Positions 2,319 to 21,881 of a stretch of DNA of 35,471 nucleotides are shown one piece after another; position 1 is the stretch's first letter; every line of letters begins with the position of its first letter. A model generated the notes under the pieces. The model ran no database searches, was not told where the DNA came from, and worked only from the letters and a program-made list of their open reading frames with translations. The position numbers were made by a program, and so were the translations under genes. Source of the stretch: Bacteroidales bacterium (GTDB lineage: Bacteria > Bacteroidota > Bacteroidia > Bacteroidales > JAOZQN01); assembly GCA_029938985.1 (NCBI GenBank), contig JAOZTW010000001.1, positions 1 to 35,471 on the forward strand, in the 5' to 3' direction.

Positions 2319-2463
2319 TTATGAATAAATAATTGGCTTAGTTTCAATATAATGAAAATAATCATTTAAAGAATAATTTTTACTAATTGATTGTGATTAA
2401 CAAAATCTTTATAAATTAATTTAAAAAATTGATAAAATACGCTTTTAATTTATTGTAGTTTGA

Positions 2464-2499
2464 GAAAAAAACTTAAACAATGCTATGTATAAGCATTGT
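2464..2499 (-). terminator. Rho-independent terminator closing the 10749..2483 operon
   Basis: On the minus strand, 'acaatgct' (2492-2499) pairs with 'agcattgt' (2477-2484) as an 8-bp perfect stem with a 7-nt loop that contains the TAG stop. It is followed by 'ttaagttttttt'. Confidence 0.6.
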
Positions 2500-3583
2500 C
2501 GCCATCACCAGAATAAAATTCAAAATTCTTGTTTTCAAATAATTTAGATATTTTTTTTGAGGCATAAAAATTTTTATTAAATTGTTTAGAAAATAAATAA
2601 GCCGATTTTTTATTAAATATTTCTAATAGATTTTTGTCAAACAAAGTTATAGTAAAAATTTTATTTCTTCTAATTATTTCTTTTAAAATACAATAAATAT
2701 TATTAATTTCATTTTTTTCGTAAAATATGTAAGGTATTTCTATATTTTTATTTCTTATTTTTATTATAAAAAAAGCAGATATTACATTATTTGAATTATA
2801 TATTTTTATGTTATTGTAACAAAAATTTTTACTTATTGAAGAAAAATAATATTTCATATTAAAATTATCAATAAATGGTGCATTTATTACCCAGGGAAAT
2901 TTTTGAAAATGATTAAATTCACTAATGTTTCTTTTAAATGGATTATTTTTATTTTTATTTAAAATAAAATCATATAATTCATTGTCAATATCTTTAATAA
3001 AAACAAAATTTATATTGTTAATTTTATTTGTTCCAAATTTTGATTTTATATTTATAAAAAAATTAAAAGATTTATCTATAATTTTTAAAGCATATTTTAT
3101 TTTTTTAAAAATTTCAATTTTTTTAGGTAAAATTTGATGTGAAGAAAATCTAAAATAAAATCTTTTGCCTTTCAATGATTTAATTTTTTCAAAATGTTTA
3201 CTTTTATCAAAAACAGCTTTTGCATTGGGTGCAAAATTTGAAAAAAAAATATTATCTTGCAAATCCTCAACTATTTTATTTAGCATTTGTATTGAGTAAC
3301 CTTTTCTTCTTTGCTCTGGTTTGACCCAACTACCACTTGTCCAATAAATTTTATATTTTATATCATTAATAAAAATACAATCCGAAAAAATAGTTCTATA
3401 ACCAATAATTTCATTTTTAATATATAAAATATATATTGCTACATCATTTTTCTCGGCTCTATGATTTTTAATATACGATTTTGCTCGATGTACAGAAATA
3501 GGTAAGTGAGGCATATTTTTGTACTCGTTGGAGTTAATAAAACTGTTTAAATCTTTTATATAAATTTTTTTTATTCTATTCAT
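2483..3583 (-). CDS. GNAT-fold acyltransferase, two-lobed and FemX-like in size
   Basis: GNAT motif A-like 'WVKPEQRRKGYSIQMLNKIVEDL' sits in the N-terminal half, followed by a second lobe of about 200 aa. The gene lies 10 nt downstream of the carrier-protein gene. Confidence 0.6.
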   Translation of the reverse strand: MNRIKKIYIKDLNSFINSNEYKNMPHLPISVHRAKSYIKNHRAEKNDVAIYILYIKNEIIGYRTIFSDCIFINDIKYKIYWTSGSWVKPEQRRKGYSIQMLNKIVEDLQDNIFFSNFAPNAKAVFDKSKHFEKIKSLKGKRFYFRFSSHQILPKKIEIFKKIKYALKIIDKSFNFFINIKSKFGTNKINNINFVFIKDIDNELYDFILNKNKNNPFKRNISEFNHFQKFPWVINAPFIDNFNMKYYFSSISKNFCYNNIKIYNSNNVISAFFIIKIRNKNIEIPYIFYEKNEINNIYCILKEIIRRNKIFTITLFDKNLLEIFNKKSAYLFSKQFNKNFYASKKISKLFENKNFEFYSGDGDNAYT

Positions 3584-3593
3584 TTATATAAAT

Positions 3594-3827
3594 TTATTCA
3601 GTGTGTTTTTTTGAAACAGCTATAGAAATATCATTAATTGTTTCAAAATCAATAATTTCATCTAAATCAAAACTTAGATTAAACTCATCTTCTAAGCTAC
3701 TAATAATAACTGCATGATTTAACGAATCCCAATTTTCAATATTTTCTAACTGAGTATCTTTAGTAATATTACTATTCGAAATTTTTAATTTTTTTGATAT
3801 TAAATTAATAATTTTTTCTGTTATCAT
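3594..3827 (-). CDS. Stand-alone acyl/peptidyl carrier protein, 77 aa
   Basis: 'MITEKIINLISKKL...IENWDSLNHAVIISSLEDEF' carries a DSL phosphopantetheine-serine motif in a helical protein of about 77 aa. I trimmed the ORF-track start at 3965 because it overlaps the upstream gene. The ATG at 3825-3827 lies 19 nt after that gene's stop. Confidence 0.75.
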   Translation of the reverse strand: MITEKIINLISKKLKISNSNITKDTQLENIENWDSLNHAVIISSLEDEFNLSFDLDEIIDFETINDISIAVSKKHTE

Positions 3828-3846
3828 TTTTAATCTGTTTAAATTT

Positions 3847-6126
3847 TTAATTGTTATATTTAGTTTGTGCAAAAATATAAATTGAATTAACATCTGCAAA
3901 ACCAATTTTTTTATAAACTCCATTTCCCACCTTAGTTGAATGCAAAACAAATTCAAATATTTCATTTTTTATAGCTTCATTTATTGCATACAAAGTTATG
4001 GCAGTTCCAAATCCTTTTTTTCTATAATTTTGGTCAGTTGCAATCATATATAATCCTGCTATACTGTTGTTTACATACAACAAAGAAGTAGCCACTGCTA
4101 CACCTTTATAAGTGGCAAGATACAAATAAAAATTGGGATTATTAAGAATTTCGGAGAATAAAGTTTCGGTTAAACTGCCGTTTGAATTAAGTGCATTATT
4201 AGCTATTTTTAACCAAGATTCTAATTGTTCTTGTTTTGTTATTTTAACAATATTTAAGTTTTCATTATATTTATTTTCAATTATTTTATCTTTAAAACAA
4301 TACATTCCTTGCCATTTTGTGATAGGAAAAAAATTATTTTTTTTTAATTCTTTATATTTAAAATTTGTAATATCTGAATTAATAATCCATTTTTTAGGAA
4401 GTTCGTTATTACTAATTAATTTTTTTATTTTAATTAAATTTTCGTCAAAATTTTGTTTATCAATATTTTTATTTAAAATAAAATTAAGCCATTTACCTTT
4501 TGTATTAATAATTGCCGAGAAATCTTTTTCTTTATATGTAGATATATCTTTGTGTGCTATCCAAGAATTATAAAATTGAATTAAATTTGTTTCAATTTTA
4601 AGTTTTTGTTGTTTAATATTATTTTTTTTTACAATCATATCTTTGATTTTATTTCTGTCAGTTTTTCCACTCAAATTTATTGGAAATTGTTCTAATTCAA
4701 TAATTTCGCTTGGTAGCATGTAAGTTGGTAATTTTTTTTGCAAATATTGAAAAAGTGTTTTTTTATCTTTTTGCAAATTTAAGCAAATAAGTTTAATATC
4801 ATGTAAATTTTCAGAATTTTTTATTGCCAAAGCAACAAAATTATCAGCACTCCCCCACTCCACTGCCACGCTTTCAATTTCTTCAAGTTCAACTCTATAG
4901 CCTTGTATTTGAACTTGATTATCAATTCGCCCAAGAAAATAATAATTTTCATTATCATTTTTTATAACTAAATCTCCTGTTTTATAAAATCGGTATTCTT
5001 TATTGTTGTATATTTTGTTAAAAAACTTTAATTTATTGTTTTCAATATTATTAAAATAACCAACTGTTATTTGATTTCCTGCAATACATAATTCTCCTTT
5101 TTTACTGTTTTCTAATATATTATTTTCAATATCTACAACAACAGCAATAGTTGAACCAAAAGTTTTCCCAATAGCTACTATATTATTATTACTTAGATAA
5201 TTATCGTTTTTATGTTTTGTCCAATTAAAAAAATGAGTATCAACAGTTGCCTCAGTTGGTCCATAGGCATTAAATATTTGAGCGTTTGCAATACATTTTT
5301 GCCATTTCAAAAGGTCTGTTTCAAATAATGCTTCTCCTCCAAAAAGTTGTAATTTTATATATGGAAGATGTATTTTATCAAAGTATGATTTTAAAAAAGA
5401 TAACATAGATGGTGTAAATTTTGCAACCGTAATATTATATTTTTTCATAATTTTATATGCCTCTAAATATTTTACTTTTGTTGCAGAAACAGTATAAACA
5501 CTTGCTCCAATAAATAGCGGAAACAGAAAGGAAGGAATTGAGGCATCAAAAGTTAAATCATAAATTTGAAGGAATCTGTCATTATTATTTAAGTTATTAA
5601 AAAAATATTTATAATCTACAATAAATGAATTCAAATTTTTTAATGAAATTTTCACTCCTTTTGGTTGCCCTGTGCTTCCTGAAGTAAAAAATATATACAT
5701 TAAATCATTGTAGGAGAATTTTGAAAAATCTACATTAATATTAATATTTGATTTAATAAAATTTGTATTAACTACAATATTTTCAAAACTATATAATTTA
5801 TTAAAACTTGCTGTACTTGTCAAAATCAAATCTGGTTTTATTTGATTTAAGATTTTTTTATTTCTACTTTTAGGGTGTTTTGGATTCAATGGAACAAAAA
5901 TATTATTAGTAAACCAGCTGGCTAAAATACTTGCATAAGTTTCAATATCATTGTTTACATAAATAACAATAATATTTTGTTTTTCATTTACCTCTTGTTT
6001 AATTAGAAAAATTATTGTATCAATTACCTTTTTAAAATACTCATAAGAATATTTTTTTCCATTAATAAAAAAAGCTGTACTTTTATTATAAAGTGATAAA
6101 TTTTTATGTATAGTCTCTAAAAACAT
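3847..6126 (-). CDS. NRPS-type amino-acid adenylation enzyme (DltA/AlmE-like) fused to a C-terminal GNAT acyltransferase region of about 250 aa
   Basis: Adenylation core motifs are 'FFTSGSTGQPKGV' (A3), 'FDAS' (A4), 'NAYGPTEATV' (A5), 'YKTGDL' (A7), 'GRIDNQVQIQGYRVELEEIE' (A8) and 'LSGKTDR' (A10). The C-terminus has GNAT motif A 'YMIATDQNYRKKGFGTAITLYAINEA'. Confidence 0.85.
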   Translation of the reverse strand: MFLETIHKNLSLYNKSTAFFINGKKYSYEYFKKVIDTIIFLIKQEVNEKQNIIVIYVNNDIETYASILASWFTNNIFVPLNPKHPKSRNKKILNQIKPDLILTSTASFNKLYSFENIVVNTNFIKSNININVDFSKFSYNDLMYIFFTSGSTGQPKGVKISLKNLNSFIVDYKYFFNNLNNNDRFLQIYDLTFDASIPSFLFPLFIGASVYTVSATKVKYLEAYKIMKKYNITVAKFTPSMLSFLKSYFDKIHLPYIKLQLFGGEALFETDLLKWQKCIANAQIFNAYGPTEATVDTHFFNWTKHKNDNYLSNNNIVAIGKTFGSTIAVVVDIENNILENSKKGELCIAGNQITVGYFNNIENNKLKFFNKIYNNKEYRFYKTGDLVIKNDNENYYFLGRIDNQVQIQGYRVELEEIESVAVEWGSADNFVALAIKNSENLHDIKLICLNLQKDKKTLFQYLQKKLPTYMLPSEIIELEQFPINLSGKTDRNKIKDMIVKKNNIKQQKLKIETNLIQFYNSWIAHKDISTYKEKDFSAIINTKGKWLNFILNKNIDKQNFDENLIKIKKLISNNELPKKWIINSDITNFKYKELKKNNFFPITKWQGMYCFKDKIIENKYNENLNIVKITKQEQLESWLKIANNALNSNGSLTETLFSEILNNPNFYLYLATYKGVAVATSLLYVNNSIAGLYMIATDQNYRKKGFGTAITLYAINEAIKNEIFEFVLHSTKVGNGVYKKIGFADVNSIYIFAQTKYNN

Positions 6127-19740: not shown

Positions 19741-19843
19741 TTAGTACCCATACAAAAGTTTTTACACAATTGTATTTATTTAATCTGTTGGTTTATAAGC
19801 ACACTATTGTATCATTGAACCATTGAATAATTGTATAATTCCT
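19741..19843 (-). repeat. Dispersed repeat family R2, copy a, abutting the nadA stop codon
   Basis: The reverse complement 'aggaattatacaattattcaatggttcaatgatacaat...ttataaaccaacagattaaa...gtgtaaaaacttttgtatgggtact' aligns with 24020..24122. Confidence 0.8.
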
Positions 19844-20826
19844 TACTTACCCATCTCCAACATTCGTTCAATTGGTTTTTTGGCTTTTCTAATTAATTCA
19901 TCTTCTAAAATTACCTCAGGTTGTTCAAATTTTAAAGCATTATAAACTTTTTTTATTGTATGTTTTTTCATGTTTCTGCAAATACTCATTAGCATGTGAG
20001 GATTTTTTGGTGGCAATGGAATGTAAATCTTATCTGGATTTGCTTCTTTCATCTTATGTATTATGCCTGGTTCTGTTGCAATTATAAATTTATTATTACT
20101 ACTTTCTTTTGTAAAATTCAAAATTTTTGCGGTTGACCCAATAACATCTGCATAAGACAAAACTTCCTTGTTACATTCAGGATGTGCTAAAACAATTGCA
20201 TCATCATGTTCTTTTTTTAGTGTTTTAAGCCGTTCTGCGGAGAAGTTTTCATGAACAATACATAAACCATCCCAAAGCACCATTTCTCTACCTGTAATGC
20301 TATTTATATAGCCTCCTAAATTTTTATCTGGACCAAACACAATTTTTTGTTCTCTTGGCAAACTATCAATAATTTCTTTTGCATTTGAAGAAGTACAAGT
20401 TATATCACTAAGAGCTTTAATATCTGCAGTTGTATTTACGTAAGTTACAACAACATGGTCAGGATAATCTTTCAAAAATTCTTCAAAAGCTTCAGCTGGC
20501 ATAGAATCGGCCATTGGACAACCCGACTTTAAATCTGGAATAATTATTTTTTTGTGTGGAGATAATATTTTTGCAGTTTCTGCCATAAAATGTACACCTG
20601 CGAAAACAATAATATCTGCATCTGTATTTGCTGCCTGTTGCGAAAGCCCCAAACTATCGCCAACATAATCTGCAACATCTTGAATTTTACTATCTACATA
20701 ATAATGTGCCAGTATTATTGCATTTTTTTCTTTGCACATTTTTCTTATTTCGGTATGTAAATCTATTTTTTTATCAATTTCCCAATCAATAAAACCTTTT
20801 TTTTGTATTTCTTTGTTGTTATACAT
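19843..20826 (-). CDS. nadA: Quinolinate synthase
   Basis: 'ILAHYYVDSKIQDVADYVGDSL', 'VFAGVHFMAETAKIL' and 'LAHPEC' are characteristic NadA motifs. Confidence 0.93.
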   Translation of the reverse strand: MYNNKEIQKKGFIDWEIDKKIDLHTEIRKMCKEKNAIILAHYYVDSKIQDVADYVGDSLGLSQQAANTDADIIVFAGVHFMAETAKILSPHKKIIIPDLKSGCPMADSMPAEAFEEFLKDYPDHVVVTYVNTTADIKALSDITCTSSNAKEIIDSLPREQKIVFGPDKNLGGYINSITGREMVLWDGLCIVHENFSAERLKTLKKEHDDAIVLAHPECNKEVLSYADVIGSTAKILNFTKESSNNKFIIATEPGIIHKMKEANPDKIYIPLPPKNPHMLMSICRNMKKHTIKKVYNALKFEQPEVILEDELIRKAKKPIERMLEMGK

Positions 20827-20905
20827 TTTCTTATTATTATTATTAATTAATTTATAAATTATATAATGTTTATAATAGGCTGTTAGTACTGTTGAAAAAT
20901 AAATT

Positions 20906-20913
20906 CAAATATA
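20906..20913 (-). promoter_or_regulatory. TAnnTTTG -7 box candidate for nadA
   Basis: The minus strand reads 'TATATTTG', 80 nt upstream of the nadA ATG. Confidence 0.25.
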
Positions 20914-21002
20914 TTTTTATTTTAGATTATTAAAAAAATGAGTAGCTTTACTAACAGTTTTATTTTTTATTTACTTTCTTAAATTAAGTTAATTAGCTTA
21001 GT

Positions 21003-21173
21003 TTATCAACAACTGTTAATAAGTGGAGTTGTTGATAAGTTTTATTACAAATACATTATTTTTTTTGTGAACAAACTGAGTATTTTTTATTGAAAACTAT
21101 TAATAACTTTGTGTTTTTTGTTAGTTATGCACAAAAACGGTTTTTATTGCATGTTTATTCTTTTTTATTCACA
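21003..21173. promoter_or_regulatory. Cluster of DnaA-box-like 9-mers; either an oriC-like region or DnaA-regulated promoters
   Basis: 'ttatgcaca' (21125-21133) and 'ttattcaca' (21165-21173) match TTATNCACA exactly. 'ttatcaaca' occurs at 21003-21011 and inverted at 21030-21038, and the minus strand of 21066-21074 reads 'ttgttcaca'. These three each have one mismatch. All lie in a 600-bp AT-rich divergent spacer. Confidence 0.35.
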
Positions 21174-21348
21174 AAAAGTTTTTACAAATTGTTAATAAGT
21201 TGTATTCTATTTAAGTTGTTATATATATGTTTATTACGTGTTTTTTTCAAGTTTTAAAAATACAATTGTAAAGATTTTGAATGAATTAACATGTTAATAA
21301 CTTTAAAATATTTATACAATAGATATTTATGGTTTAATAAAATAATAT

Positions 21349-21356
21349 TAGTTTTG
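21349..21356 (+). promoter_or_regulatory. TAnnTTTG -7 box candidate for rpiB
   Basis: 'TAGTTTTG' lies 79 nt upstream of the ATG at 21435. Confidence 0.25.
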
Positions 21357-21434
21357 TAAAATAAATAACAAATTTATAAATTTTGTAATATAAAACAACA
21401 ATTAAATGTTAATAATCTTATAATAAAAAATAAA

Positions 21435-21881
21435 ATGAAAAATAAAATTGCTTTTGCCTGCGACCATGCAGGTGTAGATTTGAAAAATGAGTTAATTAAA
21501 TATTTAGAAAAATCTGAGTATTCTATTACAGATTTTGGTACTCATACAACAGATAGTGCAGATTATCCTGATTTTGCCCATCCAATGGCTAAGGCGGTAG
21601 AAAACAATGAATTTATTTACGGAATTTCTATTTGTGGGAGTGGAAACGGAATTAATATGACAGTAAATAAATATTCAGGAATTCGTTCGGCATTATGCTG
21701 GAACACTGAAATTTCTGAACTTGCTCGTTTGCATAACAATGCTAATATTTGTTCTCTTCCTGCAAGATTTATTAGTGTTGAATTGGCAAAAAAAATTGTT
21801 GATATTTTTTTTAAAACAGATTTTGAAGGTGGTCGTCATCAAAGGCGAATAGATAAAATAAGTAAGGGTAAAATTTGTTAA
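21435..21881 (+). CDS. rpiB: Ribose-5-phosphate isomerase B
   Basis: 'KIAFACDHAGVDLKNELIKYL', 'ICGSGNGINMTVNK' and 'ARLHNNANI' identify the RpiB/LacAB family. Confidence 0.92.
   Translation: MKNKIAFACDHAGVDLKNELIKYLEKSEYSITDFGTHTTDSADYPDFAHPMAKAVENNEFIYGISICGSGNGINMTVNKYSGIRSALCWNTEISELARLHNNANICSLPARFISVELAKKIVDIFFKTDFEGGRHQRRIDKISKGKIC

Follow-up and report, generated by a model that had tools for sequence, protein, structure and literature searches.

Introduction

In Escherichia coli, the chromosomal origin of replication, oriC, lies between gidA (mnmG) and mioC, and transcription of gidA is thought to help its opening. The locus described here, a divergent spacer between nadA and rpiB in a Bacteroidota genome, resembles E. 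coli oriC in that it is not adjacent to dnaA, in that strong and weak DnaA boxes stand beside an AT-rich DNA-unwinding element (DUE; here a candidate one), and in that a flanking gene is transcribed away from the DUE side. The two loci differ in their flanking genes and share no sequence homology, and at the locus described here we found neither a GATC/SeqA system nor IHF or Fis sites or 13-mer repeats. By the window we mean the whole 35,471-bp stretch of DNA that was analyzed.

A second point of comparison is the basal unwinding system (BUS) of Bacillus subtilis and other bacteria, which consists of a DnaA box, DnaA-trios and an AT-rich tract (PMC8287927, PMC6669920). The published search rule requires a DnaA box with at least three DnaA-trios (3'-NAN-5', preferably 3'-GAT-5') no more than 16 bp away and AT-rich DNA beyond them (PMC8287927). 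In the window, the box-like TTATAAACA at 20867 stands beside a (TAA)5 run on the nadA-sense strand, giving a permissive trio pattern followed by A/T-only DNA, and the combination of TTATAAACA and (TAA)n matches the rule; the rule is, however, trivially satisfied in any 84%-AT sequence, GAT-type trios are absent there, and the adjoining box is a variant that is not conserved in the closest relative. Bacteroidetes are not mentioned in the main text of the BUS paper.

For Prevotella intermedia OMA14, PMC4755523 describes a multi-box, skew-defined oriC on chromosome 1 that lies far from dnaA, as predicted with Ori-Finder/DoriC, and states that such a position is common in Bacteroidetes. The nadA/rpiB spacer is a similar locus, being intergenic, carrying multiple DnaA boxes, lying at a GC-skew transition and standing apart from dnaA. 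Both origins are predictions; the copy in our window has weaker boxes in a much more AT-rich background. A preliminary description of this DNA, made from the sequence alone, had termed the location non-canonical. It is not, because dnaA-distal origins are reported to be common in the phylum (PMC4755523), and because about half of the 59 nadA loci examined below likewise have a box cluster next to nadA. The probable nadA/rpiB origin is thus a solid find, and an ordinary one for its phylum.

Results

The nadA/rpiB spacer and its genomic setting

The window is the entire contig C712 of an assembly (G000) that comprises 5.77 Mb in 993 contigs, with ~28% GC and a completeness of 99.5%. The source organism is an uncultured, deep-branching Bacteroidota lineage with a very AT-rich genome. 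Its NadA is at most ~60% identical to that of named Bacteroidota, and in our comparison with relatives its family was made up of the source genome and a single congener (G001). The proposed oriC region is the 608-bp spacer at 20827-21434, which is 84% A+T and is flanked by nadA (quinolinate synthase A; 19843-20826, minus strand; Pfam PF02445, E 2.9e-121) and rpiB (ribose-5-phosphate isomerase B; 21435-21881, plus strand; Pfam PF02502, E 2.4e-56). Both genes are transcribed away from the proposed origin, on opposite sides of it, and nadA is the conserved anchor gene of the locus.

A single dnaA gene was found, on contig C638 (473-477 aa, Bac_DnaA E 4e-57, no internal stops). Its product can be aligned over its full length with solved DnaA structures, the domain-IV helix DHSTVLH is conserved in it, and judged by its sequence the source genome encodes an intact, functional-looking DnaA initiator. 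The gene occupies C638:4110-5540 (locus L001:1093-2514), and its domain IV reads ...SLSVIGAETGGKDHSTVLHS..., with serine in place of proline at one position and of threonine at another relative to B. subtilis. We take the two substituted positions to be base-contacting ones in E. coli DnaA, and the changes may relate to tolerance of the variant box TTATNAACA described below.

DnaA boxes in the spacer

The spacer contains two exact TTATNCACA boxes, TTATGCACA at 21125-21133 and TTATTCACA at 21165-21173, both on the plus strand and both at the coordinates given in the preliminary description. The three one-mismatch sites claimed there are likewise present, namely TTATCAACA at 21003 (plus strand), TTATCAACA at 21030 (minus strand), and TTGTTCACA at 21066-21074 (minus strand). 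The inverted TTATCAACA pair forms a palindrome at 21003-21038 with perfect 12-bp arms (21003-21014 and 21027-21038), again as reported. Five further one-mismatch sites, all on the minus strand, had escaped the first reading. Four are copies of TTATTAACA, located at 21014 (in the loop of the palindrome), 21190-21198, 21292-21300 and 21407-21415, the last of these 20 bp upstream of the rpiB ATG. The fifth is the position-6 variant TTATAAACA at 20867-20875, on the inner edge of an A/T-only tract. Two of the boxes are therefore of consensus class, none is a perfect TTATCCACA, and most sites are one-mismatch variants. Relative to nadA, the array lies at -177 to -347. A direct repeat had also been described around the exact boxes, and this is real, but in a different register: the copies, at 21112-21137 and 21152-21177, are 26 nt long, 81% identical and spaced by 40 bp, and the GTTTTTA tail assigned to the repeat matches only if a 2-nt indel is allowed between them.

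Since the motif is AT-rich, and one-mismatch sites occur at 1.75 per kb genome-wide, a cluster of this kind might have arisen by chance among AT-rich 9-mers, given a spacer of 84% A+T, with a coincident switch in gene orientation that mimics a skew change. As a null model, the spacer was shuffled 20,000 times with its dinucleotide composition preserved. The two exact boxes compared with a shuffle mean of 0.075 (P = 0.002 for at least two), the eight one-mismatch sites with a mean of 1.83 (P = 0.00025 for at least eight), and none of the 20,000 shuffles matched the combined score. Over the whole 5.77-Mb assembly, the segment 20949-21198 was the best-scoring 250-bp window, with a score of 11 compared with 8 for the next and at most 7 for all others, and with the relaxed consensus TTATN[A/C]ACA the spacer again ranked first (8 sites in 450 bp). 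The DnaA-box cluster is thus above chance, and it lies in a non-coding region, as is characteristic of oriC.

Two other clusters were rejected as rival origins. The score-8 runner-up, on contig C368, owes its rank to four exact TTATCCACA in ~650 bp that fall within the coding sequence of a giant ORF, in its repeat IDIEQDVDK. At C368:2400-3150, this ORF, which is open at the contig start and spans at least 1578 aa, is built from ...IDIEQDVDK... units that place the four perfect TTATCCACA on the antisense strand, and a repeat of this type would be a false positive for origin finders that rely on box clusters. On contig C358, the second-densest cluster of variant boxes in the genome, six TTATTAACA copies form a simple tandem repeat of 16-17 bp, (ATTATTAACAATTATYT)n, at 2262-2385, directly upstream of an 854-aa ORF (2385-4946, plus strand), with no exact boxes; it may be a length-variable promoter region. 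An origin adjacent to dnaA was also rejected: on C638, the 725-bp spacer that precedes dnaA contains no exact box and does not rank with the top-scoring windows.

These scans bear on another reading of the spacer, in which it is a DnaA-titrating or -reactivating site of the datA or DARS kind, or a relic or inactive origin, and the active oriC lies on an unassembled or poorly assembled contig. A fragmented assembly could indeed miss a true origin that is AT-rich and bears repeats, and the copy in the source genome has few strong boxes. Against this, strict and relaxed consensus scans found no comparable box cluster elsewhere in the assembly, 99.5% complete as it is, and the spacer upstream of dnaA contains no exact box.

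A candidate unwinding element next to nadA

Between the boxes and nadA lies an A/T-only tract of 37 bp at 20831-20867, 5 bp from the nadA ATG, which reads ...TTAATTAATAATAATAATAA on the nadA-sense strand and is the candidate DUE. The least-stable 40-mer of the spacer, at 20838-20877, overlaps it and has a dG of -33.5 kcal/mol, placing it in the top 1.3e-5 of 40-mers genome-wide. An AT-rich element of unusually low duplex stability, as calculated in silico, therefore adjoins the boxes, as it does in known origins, and its predicted role would be to unwind.

The DNA that separates the A/T tract from the box cluster also contains a perfect 9-bp inverted repeat, CTGTTAGTA (20880-20888) and TACTAACAG (20949-20957), with its arms 60 nt apart. 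Its core, CTGTTAG / CTAACAG, is conserved in the congener, and it could be a nadA operator or a leader hairpin; a search of the spacer for known RNA elements gave no Rfam match at E up to 1.

Strand asymmetry switches at the spacer

Strand asymmetry was measured as third-codon-position GC skew (GC3) per gene, expressed on the plus strand, and was evaluated at the contig level, since the assembly consists of 993 contigs. On the left of the spacer, 12 of 14 genes had a negative GC3 skew; on the right, 13 of 15 had a positive one. When the 105 contigs with at least eight genes were scanned for change-points, C712 ranked first, with a z of 6.8 compared with 4.5 for the next, and the split fell exactly between nadA and rpiB. 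Because the skew passes from negative to positive, the polarity is that of an origin, and the possibility that the spacer is a replication terminus was ruled out.

Gene orientation also shifts at the spacer, as had been noted in the preliminary description; we counted 11 of 14 genes on the minus strand on the left and 10 of 15 on the plus strand on the right. The skew was therefore regressed on both gene strand and side. The effect of side was 0.14 (z 5.1), while that of coding strand was 0.03 and not significant, and genes that run against the local trend show the same pattern, with a skew of +0.149 for minus-strand genes on the right and -0.057 for plus-strand genes on the left. At the contig level, the spacer thus lies at a switch between leading and lagging strands, as oriC does. 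Coincidence between an AT-rich spacer and a change in gene orientation does not explain a side effect that survives removal of the coding-strand effect, and with the shuffle results we regard it as the least credible account of the locus.

Replication-type GC3 skew on the other contigs was weak (~0.05, compared with 0.14 on C712), so that the C712 switch is about three times that of the rest of the genome; frequent intra-replichore inversions in a repeat-rich genome could explain the weak skew elsewhere. Change-points of terminus polarity, from positive to negative, were seen on contigs C723, C397 and C502 (z -4.4 each), which may mark the replication terminus or recent inversion breakpoints.

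Conservation and turnover of boxes in a congener

In the congener, the divergent nadA/rpiB layout is kept, with a spacer of 857 bp that is 72% identical over the homologous part. It contains three exact boxes, including a perfect TTATCCACA, together with TTATCCACt and ATATTCACA. The box TTATTCACA at 21165 lies within the best-conserved block, TTATTCTTTTTTATTCACAA, and is identical in the congener. The other exact box of the spacer, TTATGCACA, is replaced there by an exact TTATTCACA on the opposite strand, ~6 bp away, and the TTGTTCACA site at 21066 by ATATTCACA on the minus strand, a few bp off. At the position of the palindrome, the congener has TTATCCACt with a facing TTATCAAC at a different spacing. 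The variant TTATTAACA at 21190 appears by eye to line up with the perfect consensus box of the congener, TGTGGATAA, in a stretch that is ambiguous, as MAFFT places a 10-nt gap opposite that box, and the correspondence between the two is suggested on this basis. The copy of TTATTAACA at 21292 lies within a further conserved block, AATTAACATGTTAATAACTTT. Turnover of boxes within a preserved cluster is what origins show. The element is conserved in related genomes, in that the homologous spacer of the congener has more and better boxes and that enrichment upstream of nadA extends to the level of the phylum.

A repeat element of ~79 bp is present in the congener in three copies, at C19:3433-3513, C122:51-129 and C944:88-165, two of them near contig ends. 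Its inverted ends mimic DnaA boxes (TTATCCACA...TGTGCATAA), it is absent from the source genome, and it may be a MITE-like element.

The spacer also contains TAACTTTG at 21104-21111, within the conserved block TTAATAACTTT (congener counterpart, TAACTTTT). It resembles the Bacteroidota -7 promoter element, TAnnTTTG, and as a putative promoter element it would drive rightward transcription through both exact boxes, ~315 nt upstream of rpiB. The preliminary description had named DnaA-regulated promoters as the alternative to an origin, that is, the boxes would be DnaA operators for the divergent nadA and rpiB promoters, and the spacer a region of transcriptional control. Both promoters must fall in the spacer, the boxes lie between the two genes, one variant box is close to the rpiB start, and the conserved TAACTTTG, as a putative promoter element, may fit such a role. 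Promoter regulation cannot, however, yield the skew switch observed here, which is of the replication type and does not depend on gene strand.

Skew-defined origins at nadA in two relatives

Chromosome-scale skew was examined in 20-kb windows sampled along three large records. In G030, a complete 4.87-Mb genome of the same order, skew stayed below zero between 0.54 and 2.55 Mb and was positive past that point, and at 2-kb resolution the 529-bp spacer that precedes nadA marks a jump from -0.25 to +0.10; nine of nine genes to the left of this switch had negative GC3 skew, whichever strand they were on. In the 4.83-Mb contig of Chitinophaga sp. YR573 (G041), all 11 sampled windows before nadA were negative and eight of the nine after it were positive, with five exact boxes at the skew switch and dnaA 843 kb away. 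Both loci have the same order of elements as the window (box cluster, least-stable tract, nadA start), the same skew polarity, and a nadA gene that is transcribed away from the origin. They differ in the number of exact boxes, which is five in G041, three in G030 and two in the window, and in the far-side gene, which is not rpiB in either of them; a divergent rpiB adjoins nadA in the congener and in 10 of 80 nadA loci. A universal rule for the phylum was rejected on the third record, a complete Polaribacter chromosome (G042), where skew switches at ~0.3-0.45 and 1.5-1.65 Mb, in both cases away from nadA at 2.33 Mb. Linkage of the origin to nadA is therefore widespread rather than universal.

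These comparisons weigh on both of the remaining alternatives. If the boxes served only to regulate promoters, the chromosome-scale switch at the homologous spacer of G030 and G041 would be left unaccounted for, as would the fact that the layout of boxes plus A/T tract stays while the far-side gene varies between lineages. We consider it very unlikely that the spacer is a transcription-control region and not an origin, and the preliminary alternative of promoters as the sole function gives way to a strand-independent skew switch that recurs at the homologous site in relatives; DnaA control of the promoters may be a secondary role atop origin function. Similarly, titration sites create no skew switches, while in relatives the skew places the origin at the homologous position, and a datA- or DARS-like site or a relic origin, with the active oriC missing from the assembled sequence, appears to us extremely improbable.

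Boxes upstream of nadA across the phylum

To place the locus in the phylum, we used 59 nadA loci with full flanks from diverse Bacteroidota. In the 750 bp just upstream of nadA, exact boxes were enriched ~10-fold and one-mismatch boxes ~5-fold, and the boxes were concentrated at -450 to -100 relative to nadA. Box content exceeded the 95th percentile of background in 30 of the 59 loci and the 99th in 20, and about half of the loci were without a cluster. In 47 of 59 loci, the nadA side had the higher skew (p 1.4e-7), and with the strands separated the means of the two sides were about -0.03 and +0.08. The least-stable 40-mer of each ~9-kb locus lay within 300 bp of the nadA ATG in 34 of the 59 (58%).

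The variant TTATNAACA is present in seven copies in the spacer of the window compared with 0.38 expected (matched in none of 5,000 shuffles). In the 59 relatives, it showed the strongest enrichment of any box-like 9-mer upstream of nadA (14-fold, compared with 7.5-fold for the canonical box). Other variants that are equally AT-rich, TTATNCAAA, TTATNTACA and TTATNCATA, showed no enrichment upstream of nadA in the same set. Selective enrichment of TTATNCACA and TTATNAACA is a further argument against chance clustering of AT-rich 9-mers, and that of TTATNAACA argues for a real second class of site at these origins.

Discussion

The studies described above make it highly probable that the nadA/rpiB spacer at 20827-21434 is the chromosomal replication origin of the source genome. 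The possible oriC of the preliminary description is borne out by the best box cluster of the assembly, the strongest strand-corrected skew switch, conservation in the congener, and a skew-defined origin at the homologous spacer in two relatives.

By analogy with the DnaA/oriC paradigm, DnaA encoded on C638 would bind the array at ~21003-21200, which consists of two consensus-class boxes (TTATGCACA and TTATTCACA) and several weaker variants of the TTATNAACA or TTGTTCACA form. DnaA would then oligomerize towards nadA and open the A/T-only tract that abuts the nadA start codon. Forks would leave in both directions, and transcription of nadA and of rpiB would each be co-directional with its own fork. 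We speculate that transcription of nadA away from the tract could aid opening by way of negative supercoiling, as has been proposed for gidA at E. coli oriC.

The wider pattern suggests that in much of Bacteroidota the origin may be physically anchored to nadA, the unwinding tract lying directly against the start codon of that gene, and that the box code may have two classes, of which TTATNAACA (A instead of C at position 6) would be a genuine second one, bound weakly by DnaA or bound by another factor. We put this combined proposal forward tentatively, and give it a little less than an even chance of being correct. The nadA-anchored lineages may include Chitinophagales, many Sphingobacteriales, several Bacteroidales lineages and the deep lineage of the source organism. 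In the indexed literature, we found neither an anchoring of the origin to nadA nor the TTATNAACA box class, and the indicator-gene table of Ori-Finder 2022 lacks nadA and any entry for Bacteroidota. Loci of this nadA-adjacent type are probably among individual DoriC predictions already.

For the organism itself, the origin fixes the assignment of leading and lagging strands on C712, the largest contig of the assembly, and provides a fixed point for scaffolding and for estimating the growth rate (peak-to-trough) of an uncultured lineage. More widely, nadA could act as an origin indicator gene for much of the phylum, in which dnaA-based origin finding fails, and a nadA-adjacent origin fragment could underlie oriC shuttle plasmids in Bacteroidota that are poorly served genetically. 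The enrichment of TTATNAACA raises a testable question on how DnaA boxes are recognized in Bacteroidota.
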